Made by a program: the position numbers and the translations under genes. From Candidatus Saganbacteria bacterium (GTDB lineage: Bacteria; Margulisbacteria; WOR-1; O2-12-FULL-45-9), in NCBI GenBank assembly GCA_016219705.1, contig JACRKQ010000062.1, positions 1 through 35,857 of the forward strand: a DNA stretch of 35,857 nt, in the 5' to 3' direction. Below are positions 19,445-33,417 of this stretch, in pieces; positions within the stretch are counted from its first letter, which is position 1, and each line of letters begins with the position of its first letter. The notes below the pieces were generated by a model. The model had not been told where the DNA came from. It worked only from the letters and a program-made list of their open reading frames with translations, and made no database searches.

Positions 19445-21181
19445 TCAGCCAATCTTAATCACTCGGTCCACTTTTTCCAGCGCCAATGGCTTGTGGGAGA
19501 CAATGATTATCGTCTTGTCGCGCAAGCGGCGAACAAGCTCTGACAAAATTTTTTCTTCACTGGCAGAATCAAGCGCCGCCGACGGTTCATCCAAGATCAA
19601 AATATCGGGCTCCTTGAGCAAGGCCCGGGCAATCGCCAGACGCTGGATCTGGCCGCACGAAAAATTGTTCCCTTGTTCTTCGATGGTTGCCTCATAACCA
19701 TGTGGCAGGCCAGTGATAAAATCGTGAATATTGGCCGTCCGGCAGGCGGCGACTATATCTTGAACGGCGGCGGTTTCGTTGCCATATCTTAAATTTTCTA
19801 GAATTGTTCCTGATAATAAACGCGGATTCTGCCCGACAAACCCCAGCCTTGCGCGCAGTGATTTAAGGTTGATCCGGCTAATCGGTCGGCCATCATAGAA
19901 AATTTCTCCCTCTTGCAGACGGTAAAAACCAAGCAGGAGATTTAAAAATGTCGACTTTCCCGCTCCGCTGGAACCGACCAGCAAAACATGCTCACGCGCT
20001 TTAATTGAAAAAGATTGTTCTTTGAAAATATATTTAAGGCCATCATAAGAGAAAGAGATATTTTTAAGCTCAATCTTGCCTTCTAATTTAACAATTTTTT
20101 CTTTTTCTTGCCCCTTGCCTCTTGTCTCTTGGTCCTCTCCTTCCGGCAGTATTTCATAAAAAGCGCTGACCCGCTGGAAAGCTGCCAGGGCATTCTGCAA
20201 TTGTAAATTGAAACTCGATAAATATTGTATCGGACTAAAGACATAGGACTGGTAAGCGAGAAAGGCATAGAGAGAACCGAGGCTCCAGTTTTTAGTGATG
20301 ACCAGCGGCAGGCCGATAAGCAAAACAATAAGATATGACAGATCAGTCAGCGAACCAAGCATGGTGCTGGTGATCGAGTTGACCGTCGTCGCCTGCAGTG
20401 AAAGACGATAATTATCTTTTAAGGAAGAACTGATCTTATCGATCTCCTTCTTTTCAGCGGCAAAAGATTTAATTAATGTCGTCTCCGCGATCGCCTCCTG
20501 CAGTTTTTTGTTGACGCGCGCCTGTTGCTCCATCTGGTTGTGGCTTAAGTTCCTGACTTTGCCGGAAAAATATTTGACGATGAGAAAAAAAAGCGGCAGC
20601 AGCAGGAAATTGACCAGCGCCAGCCGCCACTCCAGGAAGAAGAGGAAACAGAGGCCAAAAACAAGCTTTAATATGTTGGTTATAAAATAAGCTAATGTGC
20701 CAGTAAAAAACCACTGCACTCCCTGGACATCATTGGTAATTCGGCTTAAGAGATAGCCGGTTGACTGGTTGTCAAAAAACGATTTTGGAAAATGCATCAC
20801 CCGCGCTATCAGATCGGTCTGCAAATCAAGGAGAACATCACGCCCTAGTTTGGTAAAATAAAAATTTTGCCAGATGCTCGTCAATTTCTCCAGCAATTTA
20901 ACCAGAACAATCAACGGCAAAACAGCGATCAATAAATTCATTTTTCTTCCGAGGATCACATCATCAATCAGATAACGGGTGATGAGCGGCATAAAATAAC
21001 CGAGCGGCGTGAGCAGTAAAACGGCCAAGAAGCCGATGATCAACTGCCGGCGGTAGCGGGCAAAAAGAGGCAAGATATTCTTAAGACTAAAAGTTCCGAT
21101 ATTCCCGACTAAGTTCGCCGGCAGAATCTTGCTGGAAATACCGGATTTAAAATAATTGAGATAATCAATTAATATTTTCAT
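19445..21181 (-). CDS. ABC-B type exporter with fused permease and ATPase. It has no peptidase domain and is a probable exporter of the modified peptide.
   Basis: Six-TM N-terminal half. Walker A GSSGAGKST, signature FSCGQIQRL and Walker B ILILDE. A start at the internal Met (MKILIDYL) gives an ATGA overlap with the upstream HprK-like gene. The ORF track extends it to 21211. Confidence 0.8.
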   Translation of the reverse strand: MKILIDYLNYFKSGISSKILPANLVGNIGTFSLKNILPLFARYRRQLIIGFLAVLLLTPLGYFMPLITRYLIDDVILGRKMNLLIAVLPLIVLVKLLEKLTSIWQNFYFTKLGRDVLLDLQTDLIARVMHFPKSFFDNQSTGYLLSRITNDVQGVQWFFTGTLAYFITNILKLVFGLCFLFFLEWRLALVNFLLLPLFFLIVKYFSGKVRNLSHNQMEQQARVNKKLQEAIAETTLIKSFAAEKKEIDKISSSLKDNYRLSLQATTVNSITSTMLGSLTDLSYLIVLLIGLPLVITKNWSLGSLYAFLAYQSYVFSPIQYLSSFNLQLQNALAAFQRVSAFYEILPEGEDQETRGKGQEKEKIVKLEGKIELKNISFSYDGLKYIFKEQSFSIKAREHVLLVGSSGAGKSTFLNLLLGFYRLQEGEIFYDGRPISRINLKSLRARLGFVGQNPRLLSGTILENLRYGNETAAVQDIVAACRTANIHDFITGLPHGYEATIEEQGNNFSCGQIQRLAIARALLKEPDILILDEPSAALDSASEEKILSELVRRLRDKTIIIVSHKPLALEKVDRVIKIG

Positions 21182-22062
21182 TGACCAATTACCCTTTCCA
21201 TTTGCTCCCAAAACCGCCCGGTCAGGCTGATTTTAAGTTTATAGCAGGGGATATTTCTGGCCAGATGACAGGCATTATCAAAAATTTTCAGCTTGGTCTG
21301 GGTCTCTTCACTCTCCGAATAGGCTCGGAGACTGCGGCGGAACATTTGAAAACCGGCATCGTAAATTGAAACAGCCGCAACATTCTTTTTCATAACCTCT
21401 GCCGCATCATTTTCCGCCTGTTCCAAAAAGAATATTCCCTTAAGCGAATAAAATTGTTCAACCGGCCAATTCTTTTGGCCGTCATTTTTCCATAAATAAT
21501 TGCTCCAGGTCGGAAAAGGATGGACGAAATAGCGGCCAGCCGATTTAAAAATAATCGCCTCATCATCGGAAATCGCCTCCCAGGGATGAGGGATACGGCG
21601 GCAGCAGGTCGATTTGCCGGTATTGCCGGGCGCAGAGAGAAGATAGGCCGAACCTTCTTTGACCACAAGTCCAGAGTGAAAAGGCATGCCCTCTAGCGTT
21701 ATCGCCAGCTCGTGGACAAAATAAAGAAGATACCACATGCAAATTATGTTCATATTGTGGTCCTTATTATTTATATCAACTTTAACGACCAGATGGGAAT
21801 TTTGCGGATGCTGCCATAATTTGAGGTTCTTAAAATCCCTTACCTGCCAGCCGGTTTGAGTCATTTCCGGAATATCTTGCAGCGGAGGAAAATCCTTATC
21901 ACCGTCTTTGGGAAAGATGTAAACTTTCGCTCGATTGTCAGAAGCTTGCGTCGTTTTAAGCCTCATTATCGAAGCTAATTTCCGCAGGAAAGGTTCCACT
22001 TCCGGCTGGCCCGCAACCATCTCCCACTCACGCCCGGCAAACAATCGCAAGAGAAACGGCAT
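21178..22062 (-). CDS. HPr-kinase/phosphorylase-like P-loop protein, copy 1
   Basis: The P-loop LSAPGNTGKSTCC resembles the HprK C-terminal domain. Clear paralog of the protein at 26321..27238. Translationally coupled to the upstream rSAM gene. Confidence 0.65.
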   Translation of the reverse strand: MPFLLRLFAGREWEMVAGQPEVEPFLRKLASIMRLKTTQASDNRAKVYIFPKDGDKDFPPLQDIPEMTQTGWQVRDFKNLKLWQHPQNSHLVVKVDINNKDHNMNIICMWYLLYFVHELAITLEGMPFHSGLVVKEGSAYLLSAPGNTGKSTCCRRIPHPWEAISDDEAIIFKSAGRYFVHPFPTWSNYLWKNDGQKNWPVEQFYSLKGIFFLEQAENDAAEVMKKNVAAVSIYDAGFQMFRRSLRAYSESEETQTKLKIFDNACHLARNIPCYKLKISLTGRFWEQMERVIGQ

Positions 22063-23138
22063 TAGACAATCAATCGCGTACGGGGGAATAATTTTTTATT
22101 ATGAGCCTGCTGGCAGTACCAAAAAGAGGCCCAGAGATTTTTGGTCGAATAATAGTTTTGGGCGAGACAAAACCCCAGACAGCGGTTTTTCATGACGCAA
22201 TCATGGCAAACCCCTTCGAGGTCTTTGGGTAATCCATCACGGATCTTATTTAACATTGGATTATTTTGCCAAACATCGGCCAATTTGTCTTTCGCCGCAT
22301 CGCCAAAGTTAAATTCCGGCACTGTTTCGCCAATGCCGCAGAGCGCGTAGTGTCCGTTGCTTAAAACTCCAATAATGCCAAAAATGCCGCAGGTGCCGCA
22401 ACCGACGGCATTTTCCTTGCCAAAGATCCTCCCCAATGGCCGGAAAGCGACCGGATGGCTGTAGATCAATTTTATCTTGACCTGTTTAGCCAGGGTGTTT
22501 TCAATCCAGGCGCCAAGCTCGACTAATTCTTCCAGGGATAAAGTCTCGTCATTTTCGTGCATCTCTTTACCGCGGGCGGTTGGTTGGATCAAGTTAAATT
22601 TGACCGACCCGGCGCCATTTTTCTCGGCCAACTTGACAACATCTTCTATCTGATCTTTATTACGCCGCATGATCGACATGATGACCTGGGGCTTAAAACC
22701 GGCTGTCACTAAATTTCTGACGCCAGTCCATGCCGCTGCAAAACTTCCGGGGACCCGCCGTACCCATTCGTGGGTGGCGGCGTCCGCCCCGTCGACGCTG
22801 ACCGAAACAAAGGCCCCTTTGGCCGTCTTCATCTTTTGCGCCAATTCTGCTGTGCAGAGAACGCCATTGGTTTCAACCGTCAAATTTAATTTATTGACAA
22901 TAATGTAATCAAGAATAGCCTTGATGTCGGGATGGAGGAGTGGCTCTCCGCCGGTTAATTTAACCCCGGTTAAACCTAACGGTTTTGCCTGCTCAATAAT
23001 TGACTTAAACAAATCAAGCGGCAGAGAAGCAAAAACGTGCTGACCGTTCTGGAATTTCGGCTGGATCCAGCAGTGCCGGCAAAAGAGATTACACCCTTCG
23101 GTCAGGTAGAAATAGATACAGTTTAATTTTGGTGGCAT
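22062..23138 (-). CDS. Radical SAM / SPASM-domain peptide-modifying enzyme, copy 1
   Basis: The CNLFCRHC motif matches CxxxCxxC. The C-terminal Cys cluster (CGTCG...C...CHDCVMKNRCLGFC) is typical of SPASM auxiliary clusters. Confidence 0.85.
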   Translation of the reverse strand: MPPKLNCIYFYLTEGCNLFCRHCWIQPKFQNGQHVFASLPLDLFKSIIEQAKPLGLTGVKLTGGEPLLHPDIKAILDYIIVNKLNLTVETNGVLCTAELAQKMKTAKGAFVSVSVDGADAATHEWVRRVPGSFAAAWTGVRNLVTAGFKPQVIMSIMRRNKDQIEDVVKLAEKNGAGSVKFNLIQPTARGKEMHENDETLSLEELVELGAWIENTLAKQVKIKLIYSHPVAFRPLGRIFGKENAVGCGTCGIFGIIGVLSNGHYALCGIGETVPEFNFGDAAKDKLADVWQNNPMLNKIRDGLPKDLEGVCHDCVMKNRCLGFCLAQNYYSTKNLWASFWYCQQAHNKKLFPRTRLIV

Positions 23139-23141
23139 TTT

Positions 23142-23336
23142 TTATCGCCTGCCGTTTCTGCCTAAACTGGCTAGCTCATCTTTGAGAAAAAGATCCACCT
23201 CTAATTTTTTTGCCCATGATTTTAAATAGGCAAAATTGAGTTTTCCTTTGTTTGCCTGCAATATTTCCCTGACATCTTCCAGGTCTTTTTCCCGATTTAA
23301 ACGCTTTATAACCTCAATTAATAAATTTCTTGTCAT
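23142..23336 (-). CDS. Small hypothetical helical protein, 64 aa
   Basis: Lies 3 nt upstream of the rSAM gene and has a 4-nt overlap with the 62-aa gene. No Cys. No recognisable motif. Confidence 0.35.
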   Translation of the reverse strand: MTRNLLIEVIKRLNREKDLEDVREILQANKGKLNFAYLKSWAKKLEVDLFLKDELASLGRNGRR

Positions 23337-23521
23337 TTTACTTTCGCCATTCTGGCTAGTATTAAGCGGTTACGCTCGGCATGAGTCAAGTTCATTTTTT
23401 CTATCCGCTTCATAAGCTCTTTTTTGCTTAAGGCGGCTTTCATTAAACGAAAGCTAAAATCGGACAAATCCAACCAGGCGCGAATTTTTTCATTTACCGT
23501 TAATTTAATCTTGTGTCTCAT
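23333..23521 (-). CDS. Small hypothetical protein, 62 aa, possibly a ribbon-helix-helix-like regulator
   Basis: Begins with a short beta-strand-like segment KIKLTV followed by helices. First gene of the operon. No Cys. Confidence 0.35.
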   Translation of the reverse strand: MRHKIKLTVNEKIRAWLDLSDFSFRLMKAALSKKELMKRIEKMNLTHAERNRLILARMAKVK

Positions 23522-23599
23522 GTTTTTGACGCCACTATCTATTATAATCAGATGTCTCCGGTATTGTCAACCAGACGGCGCTGGGTGTAAAATCAGATA

Positions 23600-24715
23600 A
23601 TGAGCTCTTTTGTCTTACTTGGCGTCAATAGTTTTAACCCCGCTCTCTGCGACGGCGTTTCCAACAGCATCCTGGAGCTGATGGCTTTTTTGAAAAATAA
23701 AGGCCACCAAGTAAAAATAATTAATTATCTGACAGGAGAACCATACCGTCAGTTTATCTACAAGCAATTCAATAAAAATTCAACGAATTGGCAGGATGTC
23801 GGTTATCAGCTTACGGTCTCCGGCCTTGAAGTTGTGATGCGGCTTTTGCCTGACCGGGAAAAAGCTTCTCAATCTCAAGCGGTCAAACTAATTATGCGGG
23901 AGATAAAAGATTTACAGATAGATTTTGTTTTGACGATCGATAATTGCTTCTCCGCCCTTTTAGTCGCGCATTTGCTGAACATTCCCGGGGCCCATTGGTT
24001 TCATTCGGAAGCATACGTTAAAGAATTTCGCAACAAACCCTATTATCTAATGATGCTAAAAAATCGACAGGTATTGGCAACTTCACAGTATATCCAAGCC
24101 CGCATCAAAGCTTGTCTAGATCTGAATTCAATTGTCTGGTATCCGATCATTGACTTTAACCGCTGCCAAACCACAACCCAGACGACCACGGCTAATAATC
24201 TCGGTTTTTATTCCGGCGGGCCGCATAAAGGGGACGAGCTCGTGAATTACTTGATTGGACAGATGCCAGAGTACAATTTTATTACCGCGGGAAGATTGTT
24301 TCAAAGTATTTTTAAGACGGCTCCAAAAAACCTGGAAATATTAGGCGATGTGGCTGATATTAAAACTTTTTACCAAAAGATAAAATTATTGCTTGTCCCC
24401 TCTTTGGTCCCCGAAGGTTTTGGCCGGGTCATTGTGGAGGCGGCCGCCAATGGCATTCCGACTATTGCCAATAACGTCGGCGGGATTCCCGAAGCGCTGG
24501 GACAAAGCGGCCTATTGGTTGATGTTGAAAATATCAAACAGCCAAATATGCCTTTGTTGGTAAATAGATATCAAAGCATAATCGAACAGCTCTGCAACAA
24601 TAAAACAGATTATGATCTCTGTCAACAGCAAGCTTTAGCGCAAGCAAAAAAATATAAATTTTTACAGGAGCAGATGAATAATGAAAACTATCGCCTTATT
24701 ACTGGTAAAAAATGA
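23600..24715 (+). CDS. Glycosyltransferase, GT-B fold (family 1/4-like)
   Basis: The C-terminal motif EGFGRVIVEAAANGIPTIANNVGGIPE is typical of GT1/GT4 nucleotide-sugar binding. Confidence 0.75.
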   Translation: MSSFVLLGVNSFNPALCDGVSNSILELMAFLKNKGHQVKIINYLTGEPYRQFIYKQFNKNSTNWQDVGYQLTVSGLEVVMRLLPDREKASQSQAVKLIMREIKDLQIDFVLTIDNCFSALLVAHLLNIPGAHWFHSEAYVKEFRNKPYYLMMLKNRQVLATSQYIQARIKACLDLNSIVWYPIIDFNRCQTTTQTTTANNLGFYSGGPHKGDELVNYLIGQMPEYNFITAGRLFQSIFKTAPKNLEILGDVADIKTFYQKIKLLLVPSLVPEGFGRVIVEAAANGIPTIANNVGGIPEALGQSGLLVDVENIKQPNMPLLVNRYQSIIEQLCNNKTDYDLCQQQALAQAKKYKFLQEQMNNENYRLITGKK

Positions 24716-25637
24716 AGGTTGGATCTTGCCGACCACGCTACCTCAACTGAATAAATTTGTTGACGAAATCCTCGTCCTTGATACCAGCTCAACAGATAAT
24801 TCGCTAGCTATTTTAAAACACCTTAACATCTCTTTTCGACAGAAGAAATATGACACGCCGATAATTGACAATTCTGTCTGGCGGACAGAATTGCTGGATT
24901 GGGGACGCAGCCGCGGCGGGACCCACTTTGTCTGCCTGGACGCAGACGAAGCTTTTACTTCTCATCTCCTCCCGCATTTTAATGAATGGTTAAGCCGGCT
25001 GGAGCCTGGGGAAAAATTAATGCTTGATTGGCTGACCACCTGGAAAAGTCCGACCAAAATCAGAGTTGATAATTCCATTTGGAAAAAGATTCCCAAAGAT
25101 TTTATTTTTCGCGATCAAGCCGGCTTGCAGTTTGACGGGCAAACAATGCATGAGAACAGAACTCCAGGAAGTGGTAAGGCTAAATATGTGCCTCGCGAAA
25201 GAGGGGCGGTTTGGCATTTCCAATTTGCCGCTTTTGCCAGGTTTCAAATGAAGCAGGCTTTTTATCGAGTTAAGGAATTAAATGATAAAGGCCAGGCGAT
25301 GGATAATTTTAAATTAATCGACAGGATCAATAATTTTTACTCGATAACTTTGGATAATAGCGCCGCCCAGTGCGCAGATGCGCCAAAAAATTGGTACAGC
25401 GGCCTGCAAAATCTGGATAATATAAAAAATGCGCCGATGGGCTGGTTTTTACCGGCCATACTTGATTATTTCGCGCAAAAAGGGCTTGAGTATTTTGAGC
25501 CGCTGCAGATTTGGCACATTTCAGACCTTGAGGCCGAGTTTAGGCAAAAAATTGGCCGCGGTCCGAGATCGCTGTCACTGCCGCCTAAGCCGCGGATTGT
25601 CTCTTCTTCATGTCTTATGGGAGCTGATTCCTGGTAG
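24681..25637 (+). CDS. Putative glycosyltransferase, GT-A/family-2-like
   Basis: N-terminal IALLLVKNEG...ILVLDTSSTDNS and a later CLDADE motif. Confidence 0.5.
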   Translation: MKTIALLLVKNEGWILPTTLPQLNKFVDEILVLDTSSTDNSLAILKHLNISFRQKKYDTPIIDNSVWRTELLDWGRSRGGTHFVCLDADEAFTSHLLPHFNEWLSRLEPGEKLMLDWLTTWKSPTKIRVDNSIWKKIPKDFIFRDQAGLQFDGQTMHENRTPGSGKAKYVPRERGAVWHFQFAAFARFQMKQAFYRVKELNDKGQAMDNFKLIDRINNFYSITLDNSAAQCADAPKNWYSGLQNLDNIKNAPMGWFLPAILDYFAQKGLEYFEPLQIWHISDLEAEFRQKIGRGPRSLSLPPKPRIVSSSCLMGADSW

Positions 25638-26336
25638 TTGGTATTGTTCAATGATGGCAGCGAAAGCGCTTTTTTCCCGCTCAAAAATTTCTGTAAATTT
25701 TTCTTTGTCCAGGGTCAACTTAATAGTTGTATTGTGTTGATGCCAAATGTAATGGGCCAGGTCGATAACTGTCCTCTGGCCATTTTTCCTGGCCATCTGG
25801 TAGATAAAATCGTCGCCAAAGAACAGTTTTATTGGCGCGGGGATATTTTGCCATTCTGATCGCCGGCCAAAAATAAACCAGCCAATCCGTTCAAATTTTA
25901 ATTTATGTTCCGCGCCTAAATCTTGGAGATTAGGAGGATGATTTTGTCCTTTAAACAATCTGCTATACAAATCTGGGTGAAGATTATCCAGGCTTCTAAA
26001 AGTGACAAGCCCGATAGTCGGGTCTTGAATAATCTTCTCGCCTTTGCTTATAACCCGATCCCAAATTAAGCAATCATCGTTCAGCAGCAGGTAATAATCG
26101 GTTGTGGCCTGTTTAAGTCCCAAATTCCAGCTCTCATTAACATTAAAACGTTGATTAAAATGCGTTACTTTTAATCTGGGAGAGGAGCAATATTTTTTGC
26201 ATTCATTATCAAGGGTATTATCAATAATATGAATATAGCAATTTTGAGTCAGCAGCAAGTCCAGACTTTTCTCCAACATTTGCGGCGCCTGATTTAGACT
26301 GGGGATGATAACTGTGGTGTTTATCGTTTTAGGCAT
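25608..26336 (-). CDS. Glycosyltransferase family 2-like, short (242 aa)
   Basis: VIIPSLNQ...IIDNTLDN and LLLNDDCLIW (DxD-like) motifs. Overlaps the 3' end of the HprK-like copy 2. Confidence 0.6.
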   Translation of the reverse strand: MPKTINTTVIIPSLNQAPQMLEKSLDLLLTQNCYIHIIDNTLDNECKKYCSSPRLKVTHFNQRFNVNESWNLGLKQATTDYYLLLNDDCLIWDRVISKGEKIIQDPTIGLVTFRSLDNLHPDLYSRLFKGQNHPPNLQDLGAEHKLKFERIGWFIFGRRSEWQNIPAPIKLFFGDDFIYQMARKNGQRTVIDLAHYIWHQHNTTIKLTLDKEKFTEIFEREKSAFAAIIEQYQLPGISSHKT

Positions 26337-27238
26337 GTACTACTAAATACATTTTTTGTTAATTCATAATTGTTGATCGCCACCTCCATCTTATTCCAAA
26401 ATCGGCCGGTTAAGGTAAAATACAGGCGATGACAGGGAAGAGTACGAGTTAAGTTATAGGCATTATTGAATATTTTTAATTTCATCTTTGTAATTTCTTT
26501 TTTTGGAAAGCCGCTTAAATTTCGATGAAATATTTGCATCGCCCCATTATAAACAGCACCGATAGTAGTATTGTGACGTAATGATTCCACTCCATCTTCC
26601 ATCGCTTGTTTAAGAAAAAAAAATCCTGCTAGCGGATAAGCTTTTTCCACTGCCCAAGTTTTTTGATCAACATTCTCCCTGCAAAAATTACTAAAAGTTG
26701 GTAAGGGGTGTACCCAATATTGAGAGCCATGCTTAACAATTAGTGTTTCGTCATCAGCCAACGCTTGCCAAGGGGAGGGAATTCTTTGACAACAGGTCGA
26801 TTTCCCAGTGCCAGCAATAGCGGGGAGCAAATAAGCTTTGCTCTCTTTAATCACCATCCCCGCATGAAATGGCAGTCCGTCGGCATTAATCATCTCCTTA
26901 TATATATAAGTCAAAAGAAAGGATAAACAGTGTATCTCCATATGGCTATTTGGAGATGGGTCAAAACCAACTATTAAATGCGGCTCCTGGGGATGATCCA
27001 AAATCTTCACAGTCCCAAAATCTCGTACCCGCCAGTCGGGAGAAAAAAACTTCATTATTTTTTGATGGAATAGTTTTTCATTATTCAAAGAATAGAAATA
27101 TATTTTAGTATGATGAGAAATCGGAGCAACAATCAGCTGCATAATTGCGGCTAGTTTTTTTAACAATGCTTTGGCTTCCTTGCCAACGGCAACTAACTCC
27201 CACTTATGTCCATCAATCAAACGTAAAAGATAAGACAT
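26321..27238 (-). CDS. HPr-kinase/phosphorylase-like P-loop protein, copy 2
   Basis: P-loop LPAIAGTGKSTCCQRIPSPW. Collinear similarity to copy 1 throughout (LLRL...GxxWE, HAGMVIKESKAYLL, WVHPLPTFSNF). Starts 6 nt after precursor 1. Confidence 0.65.
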   Translation of the reverse strand: MSYLLRLIDGHKWELVAVGKEAKALLKKLAAIMQLIVAPISHHTKIYFYSLNNEKLFHQKIMKFFSPDWRVRDFGTVKILDHPQEPHLIVGFDPSPNSHMEIHCLSFLLTYIYKEMINADGLPFHAGMVIKESKAYLLPAIAGTGKSTCCQRIPSPWQALADDETLIVKHGSQYWVHPLPTFSNFCRENVDQKTWAVEKAYPLAGFFFLKQAMEDGVESLRHNTTIGAVYNGAMQIFHRNLSGFPKKEITKMKLKIFNNAYNLTRTLPCHRLYFTLTGRFWNKMEVAINNYELTKNVFSSTCLKR

Positions 27239-27244
27239 TAACCG

Positions 27245-27463
27245 TTATGAAGCGGTGCCGCCAGCAGAACAGCTACCTCCATTCCCTCCCTCGTTACATG
27301 CATAATTACTTAAACCGATGCCGCAAGACGAGAGAGGAGTCGAAGCTGATGTCCCGGTGACACAGCGATTTGTAGCGCTAGCCCCAGGACTACACTCTGC
27401 TGCAAATACTGAAACATTAAAAGAATCTTCTAAACATGGCTTCTCATACTTTATCTTTTCCAT
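27245..27463 (-). CDS. Precursor peptide 1, 72 aa. The leader carries the motif KIKYEKP. The core is Gly/Ser/Thr/Ala-rich with 6 Cys.
   Basis: MEKIKYEKPCLEDSFNVSVFAAECSPGASATNRCVTGTSASTPLSSCGIGLSNYACNEGGNGGSCSAGGTAS. A strong RBS AAGGGGG sits 8 nt upstream of the ATG. Confidence 0.7.
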   Translation of the reverse strand: MEKIKYEKPCLEDSFNVSVFAAECSPGASATNRCVTGTSASTPLSSCGIGLSNYACNEGGNGGSCSAGGTAS

Positions 27464-27493
27464 TTTTTCTACCCCCTTATTATTTTTCCCTTT

Positions 27494-27802
27494 TTACCCC
27501 ACCGGTACTTCGACTTTCGTCAAGCGGCTTTCAACACCATCCAGCCGCCGATCCTGCTCCCGATCTTTCCCAACTGCCAAAGTCCTGTCCTCTCGCGCTT
27601 TGACTAGCTCGTCCATCACACCGTCTAATTTATTCAAAACATCATCTTTATGCTGTTTGCTCTCTTCCCGCAATTGCTTCATTTCTCCTCTCATCTCATT
27701 CTTAAACTGCGCTAAATCTTCCTTCGTTGCAAAGTTTTTCAAATCTTCCTTCGTTGCGAAAACTGTCTTTAATTTAGTGATATCCTTATCCGTAATTGCC
27801 AT
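27494..27802 (-). CDS. Hypothetical charged coiled-coil protein, 102 aa
   Basis: Highly charged helical sequence with a duplicated FATKEDL motif. RBS AGGTGA. Lies between rSAM copy 2 and precursor 1. Confidence 0.4.
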   Translation of the reverse strand: MAITDKDITKLKTVFATKEDLKNFATKEDLAQFKNEMRGEMKQLREESKQHKDDVLNKLDGVMDELVKAREDRTLAVGKDREQDRRLDGVESRLTKVEVPVG

Positions 27803-27840
27803 TTTTTCACCTCTACAAAATCATTTTACCTAGATATCTA

Positions 27841-27870
27841 ATTATCGCAAATTTACCGAAAACTTGTCAA
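27841..27870 (-). promoter_or_regulatory. Sigma70-like promoter inside the cluster: TTGACA, 18-nt spacer, GATAAT
   Basis: On the minus strand, TTGACA is the complement of 27865-27870 and GATAAT the complement of 27841-27846. It lies upstream of the 102-aa gene and precursor 1. Confidence 0.4.
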
Positions 27871-27878
27871 CAACAAAC

Positions 27879-28997
27879 TCATGGCGCTGTCGCCACCAAG
27901 TTTTCGTCGGGCAAAACGCCCCCCTGGGACAGGAATTTTTTCAGGCAGGCATCGGGGCTGGGGCCGTATATTTCCCCCGTCAAGGTGTAGGAGAGCGCCG
28001 GGCAGCCGCCGCGGCAATAAGAAATATATTCGCAAGCACGGCAATCTGCAAATCTGTCGAGCGGAATTTCTCGCCGCTGCCTGAATTTAATCAATTCTGG
28101 GTGGTTAAGCCAGATGTCTTTTAGGTTCTCTTGATTTATCCGGCCCAGTTCAACGTCGTTGATCTGCGCGCAAGGAACGATAACCCCATCCGCCCGCACC
28201 GCCAATTTGCTAAAAACACCGCCGCAGCTGGTTAACAAACCGCAACCTCCTTCTCCTTCTCGCCCTTCTCGTTGAGCTTTTACCATTTTTAACCAGAATT
28301 TTGCTTCTGCCAGTGGACCAGCGGCGGCCGAAATACGATTACCATATTTTTGAATCAATTTTAACAAAGAGTTCATGGCAACTGTTCGTTCCGCCGGTGT
28401 CAACTGGATCTCATCAGAATTTTTCTGGCACAAACCAAGATAGGAGGCGGAATTGGTGGAAAATCCCGGCAAACCTAGGTCTTCAATAAGTAATTTGGCG
28501 ACATTTTCGAGATCATGGACATTATAGCGGTTGATGGTAACACGAACGGTTGTTGATAATTTGTATTTTTGCAGCTGCTTGACGGCGGCGACAGCTTTAA
28601 GGAATGTCCCTTGGCCGCGGCTGGCCTCGTGGATAATGGGCTGGGAACCGTCGATGGAGACCTGGACACTGTTGCAGCGTTTAGTCGCCGCTAAAAACTC
28701 CGCCCACTCTTCGGTAATTAAGGTGCCATTACTTAGGAGGCTAAAGCGCAGCCTGTTTTTGATAATGCCGTTGATAATCTCTTTTAAGTCAGAGCGAAAG
28801 AAGGGCTCGCCACCGGCCAGGCAGATATTAAAAACGCCGATTTTAGTTGCTTCCTCAAAGAACTTCAGCCATTCGGCCGCTGGAAGATCCTTTTCCACAC
28901 TGCCTGTACTGGTAAAATGGCTGCAATACTTACAGCGCAGGTTGCAATTGTTGGTAATATTAATGTCTACCCCTGACGGGGCGCTAATAAGTTTCAT
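27879..28997 (-). CDS. Radical SAM / SPASM-domain peptide-modifying enzyme, copy 2
   Basis: CNLRCKYC matches CxxxCxxC. C-terminal Cys-rich SPASM region (CGLLTSCGG...CAQ...CRACEYISYCRGGC). Lies 10 nt downstream of precursor 2. Confidence 0.85.
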   Translation of the reverse strand: MKLISAPSGVDINITNNCNLRCKYCSHFTSTGSVEKDLPAAEWLKFFEEATKIGVFNICLAGGEPFFRSDLKEIINGIIKNRLRFSLLSNGTLITEEWAEFLAATKRCNSVQVSIDGSQPIIHEASRGQGTFLKAVAAVKQLQKYKLSTTVRVTINRYNVHDLENVAKLLIEDLGLPGFSTNSASYLGLCQKNSDEIQLTPAERTVAMNSLLKLIQKYGNRISAAAGPLAEAKFWLKMVKAQREGREGEGGCGLLTSCGGVFSKLAVRADGVIVPCAQINDVELGRINQENLKDIWLNHPELIKFRQRREIPLDRFADCRACEYISYCRGGCPALSYTLTGEIYGPSPDACLKKFLSQGGVLPDENLVATAP

Positions 28998-29006
28998 AAG
29001 ACTCTA

Positions 29007-29210
29007 TCATCCTACTCCAGTTCCCGAATTGCATAAAGGCGGCGCACCTGGGGCGGAAGTCCCGCTAATACACCCATTAGCGCCAGTGGCCGATGTCCCA
29101 GTATTGCAATTATCAGTTGCAGAACTTCCTGTGCTACTACAGGGAGCCGCCTGCACTTCTCCAGAAAAATCTACCAGCTCTGGTTTCTCATACTTGATCT
29201 TTTTTTGCAA
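29007..29210 (-). CDS. Precursor peptide 2, about 67 aa from a TTG start. Same leader and core motifs as precursor 1. The core has 4 Cys.
   Basis: (M/L)QKKIKYEKPELVDFSGEVQAAPCSSTGSSATDNCNTGTSATGANGCISGTSAPGAPPLCNSGTGVG. RBS GAGGGG sits 6 nt before the TTG at 29210. The ORF track extends to 29420, but no ATG lies near the conserved leader. Confidence 0.6.
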   Translation of the reverse strand: MQKKIKYEKPELVDFSGEVQAAPCSSTGSSATDNCNTGTSATGANGCISGTSAPGAPPLCNSGTGVG

Positions 29211-29238
29211 ATTTATCCCCTCATTGTCAACAAACAAT

Positions 29239-29267
29239 TTTACACCAAAATAGTTATCTTGTATAAT
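29239..29267 (+). promoter_or_regulatory. Sigma70-like promoter for mtnP: TTTACA, 17-nt spacer, TG-TATAAT. It gives a near-leaderless transcript.
   Basis: TTTACA at 29239-29244. TGTATAAT at 29260-29267. The first in-frame ATG overlaps the -10, so the start is more likely the ATG at 29275. Confidence 0.4.
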
Positions 29268-29274
29268 GGTAATC

Positions 29275-30009
29275 ATGGTAAAAATTGGTATTATCGGCGG
29301 TTCGGGGTTAGACAATCCTGACATTTTAAAAGAGGCCGTCGACAAAAGTGGCGCCAATAAATACGGCCAGCCATCTTCTCCCCTAGCCTGCGGCAAAATC
29401 AACGGCGTGGCAGTCGTCATCCTGTCCCGCCATGGGCGCGATCACAGCATCATGCCGACCAAAGTTAATTTTTTAGCTAATGTGTACGCGCTGAAAGAAG
29501 AAGGCTGCACCCATATCCTGGCTGCCACAGCCGTCGGTTCGCTGCGAGAAGAGATCGCGCCCGGCAACCTGGTCTTTCCGTCGCAATTTATCGATTTTAC
29601 CCGCCGCCGCAATTTAACTTTTTTCACCGATCATGTCATCCATACCCCGATGAGCGATCCTTATGATAAACGATTGACCGATATTTTATGCCAGACTTGC
29701 GGCGAATTAAATTATAAATATAACCATGATGTCACGGTTATAACCATTGAAGGGCCCCGCTTCTCAACTCGGGCGGAGAGCCAGATGTTCCGCGCCTGGG
29801 GCGCTGATATTATTAACATGTCGACCTGTCCGGAAGTTATCCTGGCCAATGAGCTGGGGATCCCCTATCAGACCATCGCTATGTCAACAGATTACGATTG
29901 CTGGAAAGAAGATGAAGCGCCGGTCACTTTTGCCATGATCATGGAGCGAATGAAGGAAAACGCTGACAAAGTCAAAAATCTGTTAATTAACGTCGTCAGG
30001 AGGATATAA
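29275..30009 (+). CDS. mtnP: S-methyl-5'-thioadenosine phosphorylase / purine nucleoside phosphorylase
   Basis: [11 protein letters not shown]-terminus and [17 protein letters not shown] motif. The ORF track starts at 29266. Confidence 0.85.
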
Positions 30010-30536
30010 TGCCGATCAAATCACGGATCAGAACAGTGCCGCATTGGCCGAAGAAAGGAATCATGTTCCGGGATATCACGACGCTATTAAAGGATCCAGT
30101 CGGACTAAAAATCTGCATCGATGATTTTTTGAACCGCTACAAAGACAATAAAATTGATATTGTCGTCGGTATTGATTCGCGCGGCTTTATTCTCGGCGGC
30201 GCCCTGGCCTATTTATTAAATAAAGGGTTTGTCCCGGTCCGTAAAAAGGGGAAACTGCCGGCGGAGACAGAGAAAGAGGAATATACGCTGGAATATGGCA
30301 CAGATGTTATTGAGATCCACAAAGACGCCATTGAGCAGGGGCAAAAAGTTCTCATCATTGATGATTTGATCGCCACCGGCGGGACCGCTCTGGCCGCCGC
30401 GAAATTAGTGCAGAAACTCGGCGGTGAGATCGTCGAATTAGCTTTTATGGTTGATTTGCCTGATTTAGGCGGCAGGAAAAAATTGGCAGCGGCCGGTTAC
30501 AAAGTATACGCGCAAACGGAATTCGCCGGGGAATGA
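30009..30536 (+). CDS. apt: Adenine phosphoribosyltransferase
   Basis: PRPP-binding motif [13 protein letters not shown]. 175 aa. Confidence 0.85.
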
Positions 30537-31531
30537 AAGTCAAAGGTCAACATTATCGGACCATTTGGTTTGCCCCGCCTGTTGTCTTCTTAATCGAACA
30601 AAATCTCCTCCCTTTTTCTTTTCAAATCGTTAAATGCGCTGATTTTCAGGCGACTTGCCGGGCAATTAAAAATATGACCGTGCGCGGGGCTGGAGCGATT
30701 GGCGCGGCGGCGGGGTTTGCCATGGCGCAAGCTTTATTAGCCAAAGTTGATCCGCTGAAAGCCAAAAAAGAGATCGAAGCGACGCGGCCAACCGCGCAGA
30801 ATCTGTTTTACGCGGCAGAGCGGGTCTTCCAGGCCGCCGATCCTGTCGCTTGCGCCCAAAAGATCGCCGACGAAGACGCCGCAAGCTGCCAGAGAATCGG
30901 CGAGCTTGGCAGTCAATTAATTATAGACGGAATGAGAATAGAAACACATTGCAACGCCGGCTGGCTGGCGTTTGTCGATTATGGCACGGCTCTTGCGCCC
31001 ATTTACGCCGCCAGAGATCAGGGCAAAAATGTTTTTGTTTATGTCGATGAAACACGGCCGCGCGGCCAGGGAGCGCGCCTGACCGCCTGGGAATTATTCA
31101 ATGAAAAAATTCCGCACGCGATTATTCCCGATAACGCCGGCGCCTCCTTAATGTCGCAGGGGAAAGTTGATATGGTAATCGTCGGCGCTGACCGCATCGC
31201 CGCCAATGGCGACGTTGCCAATAAGATCGGCACTCTGGAAAAAGCGCTTGCCGCCCATGAATATGGCATCCCCTTTTACGTCGCGGCGCCAACGGCAACC
31301 ATTGATTTGCAGTGCGCTTCCGGCCAGGACATCCCGATTGAAGAAAGAAGTGAAAAGGAAGTTACTCACCAGTCGGGTATTAATGAAGAAGGCCAAAATT
31401 CCACTATCCTGGTCTGTTCCCCCGGATCAACGGCGTATAATCCGGCATTTGATGTTACTCCCGCCAAATACATCACAAAAATCATCACGGAGAGAGGGGT
31501 TGTGGCTGCTCCAGCAGCTCTTTTTCTTTGA
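30533..31531 (+). CDS. mtnA: S-methyl-5-thioribose-1-phosphate isomerase (eIF-2B-like family)
   Basis: [18 protein letters not shown] motif of the MtnA/eIF2B family. 4-nt overlap with apt. Confidence 0.8.
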
Positions 31532-31763
31532 GAGAATTGATAAACTCTTCCACATCTGCGGCGACGTTTTCCGGCACATTGTCGCAAGATTCTTTTACTC
31601 TGGCGATAATTTCTGCAACCTCGTTTTTACCGTCTAATAATTTGGTCACAAGCACCGAAGTCGGGTTGAGTCCAAAAGTATTCCCCGTATCCGGATCAAA
31701 CAATACCCCCCATTCATCCAGTTCCTCCCGCAAAACAATCGAATCAAGCAATTTTGGCTGCAT
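31485..31763 (-). CDS. PqqD-family protein (RiPP recognition element-like peptide chaperone)
   Basis: 92 aa. Motifs VLFDPDTGNTFGLNPTSVLVTKLLDGKNEVAEIIARV...[14 protein letters not shown] match the PqqD pattern (LN-T---I---LDG---V-EI...V-EFL--L---GLI). Confidence 0.7.
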   Translation of the reverse strand: MQPKLLDSIVLREELDEWGVLFDPDTGNTFGLNPTSVLVTKLLDGKNEVAEIIARVKESCDNVPENVAADVEEFINSLKEKELLEQPQPLSP

Positions 31764-31801
31764 CTTTCATTCCCTCCCTTTGGTTTATTCTCGCAAATTA
31801 A

Positions 31802-32302
31802 TCATGGCCTTGTCAACAACGAATTCAGGCGATAATTGAGCCGGCCGGTCATATGCCGGCAGGCGCGGCGCAGTTTTTTATTAAGCAGGAGTTTTAAGGC
31901 CGGGGCAAGACAGCGATAAAAATAATGAGACATAATGTTATAGAAAGCGCGCTGATCCTGCCGTGTGAACATCTGCCGCCTTCCCCGAAAAATCTCTTTC
32001 ACCCGCCCGATGATCTGCTCGCTTTTGATGCTGCTGGCCGTCAGATTATTATCCCCTTTTTCCAGGAAACTTATTTCCCGGCTATTTTTGTTAACGCGAA
32101 CAATGCGATGGCAGATCAATTTCCCATACCCCTGAAAAACAACGATATCCCCGGCTTTGATGGCTTGAGGCAGGACATTTTCCAGAAAAATAACGTCCCC
32201 TTCTTTAAGGGTCGGCGCCATGCTCCGGCCGATAAGTTTGGAGACTTTAAATTTCTTTAATTTCTGCAGCGGGGATAATTGGTTAATGTCTATATTATTC
32301 AT
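31802..32302 (-). CDS. S24/S26-family (signal-peptidase-I-like) serine peptidase and putative leader peptidase
   Basis: GRSMAPTLKEGDVIFL matches the S26 Ser box (SMxPTL). GDIVVF follows downstream. A start at the internal Met gives an ATGA overlap with the upstream gene. The ORF track extends to 32368. Confidence 0.6.
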   Translation of the reverse strand: MNNIDINQLSPLQKLKKFKVSKLIGRSMAPTLKEGDVIFLENVLPQAIKAGDIVVFQGYGKLICHRIVRVNKNSREISFLEKGDNNLTASSIKSEQIIGRVKEIFRGRRQMFTRQDQRAFYNIMSHYFYRCLAPALKLLLNKKLRRACRHMTGRLNYRLNSLLTRP

Positions 32303-33417
32303 TGCCTTTTTTTTGCAAAAAAACTGCCGTAAAACACCATCATAGGATACCATAGATAATGCCGCCAAGTAATCTCGTCAGCAGAGCGCAGGTTAAAAGC
32401 TGCAACAACCTTATCGCGATGAGGGATGAAATAAGGCCCGATAACGGGAAACAATTCTTGCGGTGAATCTAAGATCAATAAGCGCCAAAAATACCTGCGC
32501 CCTTTATTACCGGATATTATCAGTTTATACGGAAATTTTGTGATGAGAAAACGGTTAATAAAAGAAGTTTTTGGCAGCCTTATTAATAATTTTTCAGGGG
32601 AATCAACTTTCAATAACTCGCGCCTTAATCTCAAACATAATAAAAAAGCCTTGGTCATATTATAGCTTTTGATTAGACCAATAAATTTATCCCAATCAAT
32701 TTCCTGCTCATATCTTAGGATAATTTCCGAAACGTCGACCAATAACTTTAAAGAGGCGAAGGACTTATAAAAGAACATGATCAGAGCATGCAGTAAGAGG
32801 ATCTCGGGTGGAAACATTTTATATTGGAAACCGGCAATATTTTCTGATCGAATATCCCGCCATAAAATCTCCGGCGGGATGCGACAGCGATTGAATGGCG
32901 CCAGATTCCAATGGATCTCCACTCCGCCAATTTCTGGGTGCGTTAAAACTAAATGCTGGCTTTGTTCCAGAAAATATTCCTCTGACAAAGACTCAATACT
33001 TTTCCAGCCGGAATTAATCAATAAATCCCGGGTCTTAATCAGCTCGTTTTCCCTGACCAGGAAATCAATATCGCTGGAATGGCGTAAAGCAATATTGCCA
33101 TAAATTAATTCGGCCCAGACGGGCCCTTTCAGCGCTATAAAGTCGATTCCTTCTTCTGCCAATAATCTAAAAATTTTCTTCTGTCTGGCGTCCAAAGTTA
33201 GGTTATGGATGAGATTATAACGGTAAATTGCCTGTAATGAGGCTTTAGCCGCCGGGGGGATTGATTTATCTCTAAGGTTTAAATATAATAGCGGCGCCAC
33301 CTGGTTGACCAGCGCCAGATCGATTAAATGATCCCAATCGATTTTCCCGTTTAAGAGAGTGTTAATTGCAGAAGTATCTGCTCTGGTTTTAGCGCAAGCA
33401 AAAAGCAATTGGTCCAT
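32299..33417 (-). CDS. Putative nucleotidyltransferase-family protein of the type often found with PqqD-like genes
   Basis: 372 aa. The GPVWAELIYGNIALRHSSDIDFLV region resembles a minimal nucleotidyltransferase fold motif (G[SG]...D.D). Confidence 0.45.
   Translation of the reverse strand: MDQLLFACAKTRADTSAINTLLNGKIDWDHLIDLALVNQVAPLLYLNLRDKSIPPAAKASLQAIYRYNLIHNLTLDARQKKIFRLLAEEGIDFIALKGPVWAELIYGNIALRHSSDIDFLVRENELIKTRDLLINSGWKSIESLSEEYFLEQSQHLVLTHPEIGGVEIHWNLAPFNRCRIPPEILWRDIRSENIAGFQYKMFPPEILLLHALIMFFYKSFASLKLLVDVSEIILRYEQEIDWDKFIGLIKSYNMTKAFLLCLRLRRELLKVDSPEKLLIRLPKTSFINRFLITKFPYKLIISGNKGRRYFWRLLILDSPQELFPVIGPYFIPHRDKVVAAFNLRSADEITWRHYLWYPMMVFYGSFFAKKRQ

Follow-up and report, generated by a model that had tools for sequence, protein, structure and literature searches.

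The window analyzed here is a 35,857-nt stretch (GenBank contig JACRKQ010000062.1, positions 1 to 35,857, assembly GCA_016219705.1) from a metagenome-assembled genome (MAG) of Candidatus Saganbacteria. Part of it carries genes for two radical S-adenosylmethionine (rSAM) enzymes with SPASM domains, two HPr kinase (HprK)-like proteins, a PqqD-type protein, an S26-type peptidase, a PF14907 protein, an ATP-binding cassette (ABC) exporter, three glycosyltransferases (GTs), and two short Cys-rich peptides (Table 1). A first-pass annotation, which a model made from the letters alone, had read this region as a composite locus for a peptide that is made on the ribosome and then modified (RiPP). Listing the open reading frames (ORFs) and searching the window with profiles confirmed every gene that it named, at or adjoining the positions it gave. 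The families to which these genes were assigned score far above chance. Twenty ORFs of the locus were scanned against the Pfam and NCBIfam profiles.

The core of the region belongs to SynChlorMet (SCM), a family defined by the TIGRFAM/NCBIfam models TIGR04248 (ScmD), TIGR04249 (ScmC), TIGR04250 (ScmE), and TIGR04251 (ScmF). ScmE, ScmF, and both copies of ScmC match their models, and ScmD falls under its cutoff. NCBI already labels ScmC on this contig as “SynChlorMet cassette protein ScmC.” The view that this combination of genes fits no described class therefore has to be given up: the combination is not categorically new, and its core is a family that is catalogued in databases and experimentally uncharacterized. 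Overall, we consider it highly probable that the locus is a genuine RiPP-type SCM pathway with dispersed units, a duplicated ScmC, and added glycosyltransferases.

Other pathway types were considered and rejected. As the first-pass annotation had stated, no lasso cyclase, YcaO, or LanB/LanM protein occurs among the 20 ORFs scanned. A lasso cluster would need the C protein (cyclase) and B2, both of which are missing, and a lanthipeptide cluster would need Lan domains, of which there are none. A role in anSME/sulfatase maturation was discarded as well, as the rSAM proteins match ScmE and ScmF at the equivalog level and no sulfatase is present.

The SCM genes of the window are spread over ~14 kb in at least three minus-strand units, with plus-strand GT and methionine salvage operons between them. 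They do not form the single contiguous cassette (ScmD-ScmE-ScmF-precursor-ScmC) seen at most other loci. The methionine salvage operon, which encodes MTAP, adenine phosphoribosyltransferase (APT), and MtnA, lies inside the region and was absent from the first-pass annotation. Housekeeping genes lie upstream (murD, mraY, pfk, pgi, ligA, truB, rbfA, infB, nusA, and groEL/ES), and an Rfam search of the window returned no match.

Table 1. Genes, promoter-like sites, and motif copies at the SCM locus of the window
Feature	Block	Coordinates	Strand	Evidence and remarks
ABC-B exporter (transmembrane and nucleotide-binding domains)	Minus-strand block 1	19445-21211	-	PF00664 E=2e-46; PF00005 E=2e-31
ScmC-1	Minus-strand block 1	21178-22062	-	TIGR04249 249.9 bits (cutoff 125); putative peptide kinase
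ScmF	Minus-strand block 1	22062-23138	-	TIGR04251 571.7 bits (cutoff 400)
Two small ORFs (s62, s64)	Minus-strand block 1	23142-23521	-	62 aa then 64 aa, ATGA overlap; head the ScmF-ScmC1-ABC unit
Sigma-70-like promoter		23541-23570	-	TTGACA, 18 nt, TATAAT; 12/12 consensus; upstream of s62-s64-ScmF-ScmC1-ABC
GT4	Plus-strand pair	23600-24715	+	PF13692, PF00534, PF13439
GT2-like protein	Plus-strand pair	24681-25637	+	Weak PF13704 and PF00535 matches; overlaps GT4 3' end by 35 nt
GT2	Minus-strand block 2	25608-26336	-	242 aa; PF00535 E=3e-11; 16-nt overlap with ScmC-2 (translational coupling)
ScmC-2	Minus-strand block 2	26321-27238	-	TIGR04249 214.8 bits (cutoff 125); directly downstream of precursor 1
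Precursor 1	Minus-strand block 2	27245-27463	-	72 aa; leader MEKIKYEKPCL...; precursor HMM E=1.5e-14
Coiled-coil protein (cc102)	Minus-strand block 2	27494-27802	-	102 aa, highly charged; internal FATKEDL(x)F repeat; DNA repeat D4
Motif copy 1		27847-27873	-	Overlaps 11/12 promoter-like site before cc102-pre1-ScmC2-GT2
ScmE	Minus-strand block 2	27879-28997	-	TIGR04250 548.5 bits (cutoff 400)
Precursor 2	Minus-strand block 2	29007-29210	-	67 aa; leader MQKKIKYEKPELVDF...; precursor HMM E=2.2e-15
Motif copy 2		29207-29233	-	Overlaps ribosome-binding site and start of precursor 2
MTAP, APT, MtnA	Plus-strand operon	29266-31531	+	TIGR01694 290 bits, NF002634 275 bits, TIGR00512 362 bits
ScmD	Minus-strand block 3	31485-31763	-	PqqD-type RiPP recognition element; PF05402 E=6e-16
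Motif copy 3		31793-31819	-	Overlaps 10/12 promoter-like site before ScmD
S26-type Ser/His peptidase	Minus-strand block 3	31802-32368	-	TIGR02228 73.6 bits (cutoff 51.85); archaeal/endoplasmic reticulum signal-peptidase-like
PF14907 “uncharacterised nucleotidyltransferase”	Minus-strand block 3	32299-33417	-	PF14907 E=2e-48; invariant DxD (D116/D118)
Wza/SLBB polysaccharide export (OPX) protein	Minus-strand block 3	33423-35840	-	805 aa; PF02563, PF10531, PF22461

A Gene Set That Recurs among 80 Loci

Using a profile of 23 ScmC sequences, we retrieved 80 loci from other genomes and searched their ORFs with the window proteins; many of these loci are truncated. They come from Syntrophales and other Desulfobacterota, Omnitrophota, Chlorobi, Brocadiaceae, Aminicenantes, Nitrospirae, Victivallales, Saganbacteria/Margulisbacteria, Methanocella, and Methanotrichaceae. 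Given ScmC, which served as the query and on whose presence all of these counts are conditional, homologues of ScmF were found at 59 of the 80 loci, ScmD and the S26 peptidase at 55 each, ScmE at 54, the ABC exporter at 46, and the PF14907 protein at 41. The usual gene order is ScmD-ScmE-ScmF-precursor(s)-ScmC-S26, with the ABC exporter and PF14907 genes adjoining on the same strand. Beyond these, no other family reached more than nine loci once shadow ORFs had been removed. Many families of ~100-aa “conserved” ORFs that emerged from all-versus-all clustering were such shadow ORFs, lying inside Scm genes, and were discarded.

The idea of a composite RiPP-like locus holds up well at this scale: the small Cys-rich ORFs fit as its substrates, and other genomes show both conservation and synteny for the precursors and the HprK-like proteins. 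Two findings that the first-pass annotation had named as damaging to its proposal, namely rSAM proteins that belong to a cofactor or anSME maturase family, and HprK-like proteins and Cys-rich ORFs that lack conservation or synteny, did not materialize, as ScmE and ScmF are assigned at the equivalog level and the 80 loci show both conservation and synteny.

Two natural gene fusions add to this picture. One joins ScmC to the S26 peptidase (protein P0093, 519 aa), and the other joins the S26 peptidase to PF14907 (L045:10840-12831, 663 aa). Because these proteins occur fused in nature, ScmC, S26, and PF14907 appear to be functionally tied.

Some loci depart from the common arrangement. In a subclade of Syntrophales (L013, L057, L063, L074, L076, and L080), the precursors exceed 100 aa, are rich in CC pairs, and come with one ScmC each. 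Between ScmE and ScmF, these loci encode a membrane protein of ~573 aa that is polytopic and matches no Pfam model, and between the ABC and PF14907 genes they have a PF00535 GT2. In a Methanocellaceae MAG (L027:1-6600), the ABC, ScmD, ScmE, ScmF, and ScmC genes are present as short fragments in multiple frames beside an intact second ScmC. Either this cassette has decayed, or the long-read assembly contains frameshift errors.

Precursor Peptides with Lasso-like Leaders and Periodic Cores

A precursor hidden Markov model (HMM), built from the first phmmer hits, matched 109 small ORFs at 64 of the 80 loci and exactly two in the window, nearly all of them beside Scm genes. Neither window peptide matches a Pfam or NCBIfam model. 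The TIGRFAM description of SynChlorMet is not known to identify a precursor. The ATG of precursor 1 is preceded by the Shine-Dalgarno sequence AAGGGGG. Precursor 2 most likely starts at TTG 29210, which has a GAGGGG Shine-Dalgarno sequence 6 nt upstream, rather than at the start of the longer 137-aa ORF. The leader motif [YW]xxPx[LIV] is found in all 109 locus precursors and in both window peptides, within a consensus of [YW]-E-K-P-x-L-[VI]-D-L, and the first core Cys follows its Tyr at a distance of 17 to 20 residues. A YxxPxL motif is likewise conserved in the leaders of actinobacterial lasso precursors, where it contacts the PqqD-like B1 protein (PMC6784204).

The cores are hypervariable in size, with 27 to 108 aa and 3 to 16 Cys, and a locus may carry up to six precursor copies. 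They are composed of 19% Gly, 12% Cys, 12% Ser, 11% Thr, 10% Ala, and 7% Asn, and are organized around the repeat unit C-x-x-G-x-x-A-x3. Of all Cys spacings, 32% equal 10 (4% in shuffles), and Gly occupies the +3 position of Cys in 74% of cases (19.5% in shuffles). The ends of the peptides are also patterned: the tail past the last Cys measures 7 to 9 residues in 67 of 102 peptides, and C..G[TS]G is found at the last Cys in 23 of the 102, as compared with 36 of 600 internal Cys. Before the first Cys, small residues prevail, with Gly or Ala in 70% of peptides at two and 49% at four positions upstream. In the window, the precursor 1 core has five Cys at spacings of 10, 13, 9, and 9, and the precursor 2 core has four and ends in CNSGTGVG.

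Precursor and ScmC genes tend to be paired. A precursor lies directly upstream in 51 of 88 ScmC genes, and loci with two or three ScmC genes have at least as many precursors as ScmC genes, often alternating in a precursor-ScmC-precursor-ScmC order. The two precursors and two ScmC genes of the window are consistent with this pattern.

Putative Modification, Processing, and Export Proteins

ScmE and ScmF are rSAM enzymes with matches to PF04055 (E=2e-27 and 1e-23, respectively) and to PF13186, and they retain the CX3CX2C motif and seven SPASM Cys across 51 to 52 homologues each. Their best-scoring characterized relatives include PqqE, MftC, and the heme-pathway enzymes AhbD and NirJ. Models for sactipeptide and ranthipeptide synthases all score far under their cutoffs (PapB 101 of 340 bits for ScmE, AlbA 73 of 850 for ScmF, StsB 109 of 625, and SkfB 85 of 300). 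Both enzymes begin directly at the rSAM motif, with no N-terminal recognition domain; recognition must therefore fall to ScmD as a protein in trans. We see about an even chance that ScmE and ScmF form Cys-derived thioether crosslinks, possibly of two kinds.

ScmC-1 and ScmC-2 are paralogues with 43% identity. The family carries the invariant motifs H..GxGKSTCCRR..DD and has the hallmarks of the HPr kinase/phosphorylase superfamily, which are a PEPCK-like P-loop fold, a Walker A motif, and an upstream His. It does not belong to HprK-related kinase A (TIGR04352/04353, HPr-rel-A), for which the two copies reach 19.5 and 25.9 bits (cutoff 200), and the match to HprK_rel_A covers only a local P-loop stretch. 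HprK homologues are known to phosphorylate lasso precursors (PMC8498205, PMC6993621).

The PF14907 protein offers a second parallel with these lasso pathways. In pseudomycoidin biosynthesis, PsmN, also described as an “uncharacterised nucleotidyltransferase,” requires D134/D136 (PMC6993621) and adds one or two hexoses to the phosphate placed by the HprK homologue PsmK (PMC6993621, PMC8498205). These papers support the analogy that the first-pass annotation had drawn between lasso clusters and the kinase and nucleotidyltransferase pair of the window. Searches of the PF14907 protein against PDB sequences, with a profile and with the single sequence, returned only noise.

The ABC exporter has no N-terminal C39 peptidase domain, as its alignment to the NHLP exporter model, which includes such a peptidase, begins at model position 150. 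For this reason, the S26 protein, which appears soluble, is the natural candidate for the leader peptidase. It has no N-terminal transmembrane segment, and its GxSMxP, HR, and GD motifs are invariant in 52 SCM-linked homologues. Both genes probably start slightly inside their ORFs, with ATGA overlaps: the S26 peptidase at ATG 32302, overlapping the upstream stop, and the exporter at ATG 21181, overlapping the stop of ScmC-1.

Glycosyltransferases and Neighboring Genes

The first-pass annotation had placed three glycosyltransferases in the pathway, and the evidence for them is uneven. The best placed is GT4. Full-length relatives with 34% to 38% identity lie in or next to SCM cassettes, at L065 (in the order GT4-ScmD) and at L050 (PF14907-GT4). 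A reciprocal metagenome scan with the GT4 alignment yielded eight full-length relatives, and all six with visible flanks were in or adjoining Scm genes. In the same scan, the 39 GT1 matches that were partial and generic had no Scm gene in their vicinity. Because the visible flanks of its relatives are always Scm genes and those of generic matches never are, GT4 is an accessory that is dedicated to SCM and carried by some of its cassettes.

The GT2 gene is tied to the pathway only by its 16-nt overlap with ScmC-2. It is a near-orphan, with three relatives among 5.8 billion clusters, all on short contigs, and no match among PDB sequences. Eight Syntrophales cassettes carry another PF00535 GT2 between the ABC and PF14907 genes, and because this is a different GT2, glycosyltransferases appear to have joined SCM more than once. 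The GT2-like protein is under the Pfam threshold by itself (23.1 versus 27.5 bits), and homologues up to 52% identical carry PF00535. It has weak matches among PDB sequences to GmaR (E=1.3e-3) and to the S-glycosyltransferase 7MSK (E=0.17), and its membership in the pathway is uncertain.

Wza was counted as the exporter of the fourth transcription unit in the first-pass annotation. The gene is present, just beyond the end of the region annotated there. It is linked to SCM genes at the window and is no conserved SCM partner, with homologues within 10 kb at 3 of the 80 loci. Given a gap of 5 nt between its end and the PF14907 gene, it is apparently transcribed together with PF14907, S26, and ScmD, and the window ends in its upstream region.

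The methionine salvage operon is probably a housekeeping element and is not a conserved partner of SCM; enzymes of the MTAP/APT/MtnA type could also recycle 5'-deoxyadenosine, a by-product of radical SAM reactions. The coiled-coil protein cc102 has no significant Pfam or NCBIfam match, and s62 and s64 match no Pfam or NCBIfam model. Neither these small ORFs nor cc102 has a homologue in the 80 loci.

Promoter-like Sites and a Shared Motif

The window also contains features that may coordinate its dispersed units, all of them consensus matches. The 35.8-kb window holds three copies, and no more, of a 27-nt motif, TTGTTGACAA-N11-WAATTTGC, which appeared in none of 100 shuffles. All are on the minus strand and immediately upstream of SCM units, namely cc102-precursor 1-ScmC2-GT2, precursor 2, and ScmD. 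Its TTGTnnACAA part is palindromic. Two copies overlap promoter-like sites; copy 2 may be an operator instead of a promoter, because it overlaps the Shine-Dalgarno sequence and TTG start of precursor 2. The motif is genome-specific, being absent from 129 other loci. Judging from these consensus matches, the dispersed units may act together, tied by the shared motif. The promoter-like sites also suggest that the first of the four transcription units of the first-pass annotation is two, precursor 2-ScmE and cc102-precursor 1-ScmC2-GT2.

Comparison with Known Systems

Compared with other SCM cassettes, the window has the marker families ScmE, ScmF, and ScmC, the last in two copies, and a probable ScmD that scores under its cutoff, together with the S26 peptidase, ABC exporter, PF14907 protein, and precursors. 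It differs in that three glycosyltransferases, the methionine salvage operon, the Wza-like gene, and three small ORFs are interleaved with these.

Sactipeptide and ranthipeptide systems, such as AlbA/subtilosin and PapB/freyrasin, share the combination of an rSAM/SPASM enzyme with a PqqD-type recognition element, a Cys-containing core, and an ABC exporter. Cores of the freyrasin type are likewise built on a short, repeated Cys motif. In contrast to these systems, SCM has its recognition element on a separate protein, always pairs two different SPASM enzymes, and includes an HprK-fold protein, PF14907, and S26 as conserved partners.

The functional logic of GT4 and GT2 genes beside a Ser/Thr/Cys-rich, repetitive peptide resembles that of serine-rich repeat adhesins and the SunS glycocin system. 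In the adhesins, the GT4 proteins GtfA/B O-glycosylate the serine-rich repeats, followed by GT2/GT8 extension. There is no membership in these systems at the sequence level: the model for the glycocin glycosyltransferase SunS (TIGR04195) scores 17.5 bits (cutoff 350), over an N-terminal GT-A stretch only. The window substrate is a short peptide with a leader, not a cell-wall adhesin.

The phosphorylated lasso peptides (paeninodin with PadeK and pseudomycoidin with PsmK/PsmN) share a YxxPxL-type leader, a PqqD chaperone, an HprK-family kinase, a DxD nucleotidyltransferase, and an ABC exporter with the window, and in both settings the nucleotidyltransferase can occur joined to the leader protease (PMC8498205, PMC6993621, PMC6784204). 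The fusions of nucleotidyltransferase and B2 protease reported in lasso clusters (PMC8498205) parallel the S26-PF14907 fusion at L045 and the ScmC-S26 fusion in P0093. Instead of a cyclase and a B2 cysteine protease, the window has an rSAM/SPASM pair and an S26 serine peptidase.

A Proposed Pathway and Its Alternatives

The gene families, the conserved set, the precursor family with its motifs, the ScmC fold, and the SCM-specific GT4 subfamily are the observations from which we infer a pathway and its chemistry of crosslinks, phosphate, and sugar. The two precursors would be made with a [YW]-E-K-P-x-L leader, which ScmD would bind at the YEKPxL sequence in order to present the peptide to ScmE and ScmF. 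These two enzymes would modify the periodic C-x-x-G core. ScmC-1 and ScmC-2, one per precursor, would transfer phosphate from ATP to the hydroxyls of core Ser/Thr residues, and the PF14907 enzyme would build on this phosphate as PsmN does on pseudomycoidin. GT4 would attach a sugar, which the two GT2 enzymes may extend. Finally, the soluble S26 peptidase would cut off the leader near the small-residue stretch before the first Cys, and the ABC-B transporter would export the product. In a bolder version of this pathway, SCM would be an uncharacterized RiPP class whose tandem ~10-residue C-x-x-G units are turned into a ladder of rings by its two cooperating SPASM enzymes and phospho-glycosylated by a precursor-matched ScmC, PF14907, and GT4, and the window would represent a glycan-extended, regulon-like form. 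We assign this bolder version a probability of about 0.35. A crosslinked, phosphorylated, and glycosylated product, as the first-pass annotation had proposed, is plausible.

Several observations weigh against the proposed pathway. We found no paper in a literature search on the SynChlorMet system, and no modification has been observed so far for any SCM peptide. The co-occurrence counts are conditional, as noted above. ScmD scores best with TIGR04248 among NCBIfam families (89.5 bits, E=1e-25), ~10 bits under the cutoff of 100; its second-best family is the lasso PqqD chaperone NF033530 (41 bits, cutoff 70). The PF14907 protein is likened to PsmN by its description and DxD motif. Ser and Thr are enriched in the core and invariant nowhere, with only Cys and Gly +3 strongly conserved, so no single position stands out as the kinase target, and the locus precursors have no conserved C-terminal Ser like that of paeninodin. 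The window precursors, with AAE|C and AAP|C, also depart from small-x-small as a strict rule for cleavage.

A further point against a glycan-extended product concerns the added genes. The SCM core may be a RiPP pathway in which the GT2-like, GT2, Wza, and methionine salvage genes are bystanders from an interleaved polysaccharide locus of the cell envelope, such that no extended glycan is made. The two nearest relatives of the GT2-like protein with known context (50% to 52% identity) lie in Wzm/Wzt loci of the O-antigen polysaccharide type that have no Scm genes, and Wza belongs to a polysaccharide exporter family. No homologue of GT2, GT2-like, APT, or MtnA occurs in the 80 SCM loci, and Wza and MTAP occur in three each. 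However, the GT4 subfamily sits beside Scm genes wherever its flanks are visible, GT2 enzymes were recruited independently in the eight Syntrophales loci, and the window genes are tightly packed, with overlaps of 35 nt between GT2-like and GT4 and of 16 nt between GT2 and ScmC-2, and a gap of 5 nt between Wza and PF14907. We regard the bystander explanation as somewhat unlikely.

The role of ScmC can be read differently as well. Phosphorylation of Ser/Thr could prepare these residues for elimination, giving lanthionine-like rings with Cys, or ScmC could serve the rSAM enzymes as a scaffold that depends on ATP and is specific to its precursor. Class III and IV lanthipeptide synthetases are established examples of enzymes that phosphorylate and then eliminate. 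HprK/P is a bifunctional kinase/phosphorylase, ScmC genes are found at nearly 1:1 with precursors, and the core is rich in Cys and Ser/Thr alike, all of which would suit these roles. Nevertheless, the 20 ORFs scanned showed neither a lyase nor a LanC-like domain, the two SPASM enzymes could already serve Cys chemistry, and the conserved PF14907 protein together with the lasso precedent indicates a phosphate that is retained and built upon (PMC6993621). Elimination or scaffolding is thus an improbable function for ScmC.

Least probable is that the peptides are not exported and instead give rise, inside the cell, to a cofactor or to a peptide that binds metal or Fe-S, as with pyrroloquinoline quinone or mycofactocin. 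In favor of this, PqqE, MftC, AhbD, and NirJ do rank by score among the characterized proteins nearest to ScmE and ScmF, Cys spacing is regular, and the 80 loci come mostly from lineages generally known as anaerobic, but core length and Cys number are hypervariable with up to six copies per locus, a dedicated ABC exporter and leader peptidase are conserved, and no oxidoreductase partner family is conserved in the loci.

Implications for the SCM Family

The exhaustive profile search found 958 ScmC clusters (50% identity) at E ≤ 1e-30, and SCM lineages include Saganbacteria, Omnitrophota, Chlorobi, anammox bacteria, Syntrophales, and Methanocella, spanning Bacteria and methanogenic Archaea. For this broad family, the substrates can now be named: precursors that combine a leader resembling that of lasso peptides with a strikingly periodic Cys-Gly core. 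The parts list of SCM is also fuller, with a soluble signal-peptidase-like protease, a PF14907 enzyme, an exporter, and, in some cassettes, a dedicated GT4. If the proposed chemistry is correct, radical crosslinking and phosphate-linked glycosylation would meet in one peptide, a combination that we know of in no characterized RiPP class. The window is therefore an entry point to an unsolved and widespread system whose substrates and full enzyme set can now be named.

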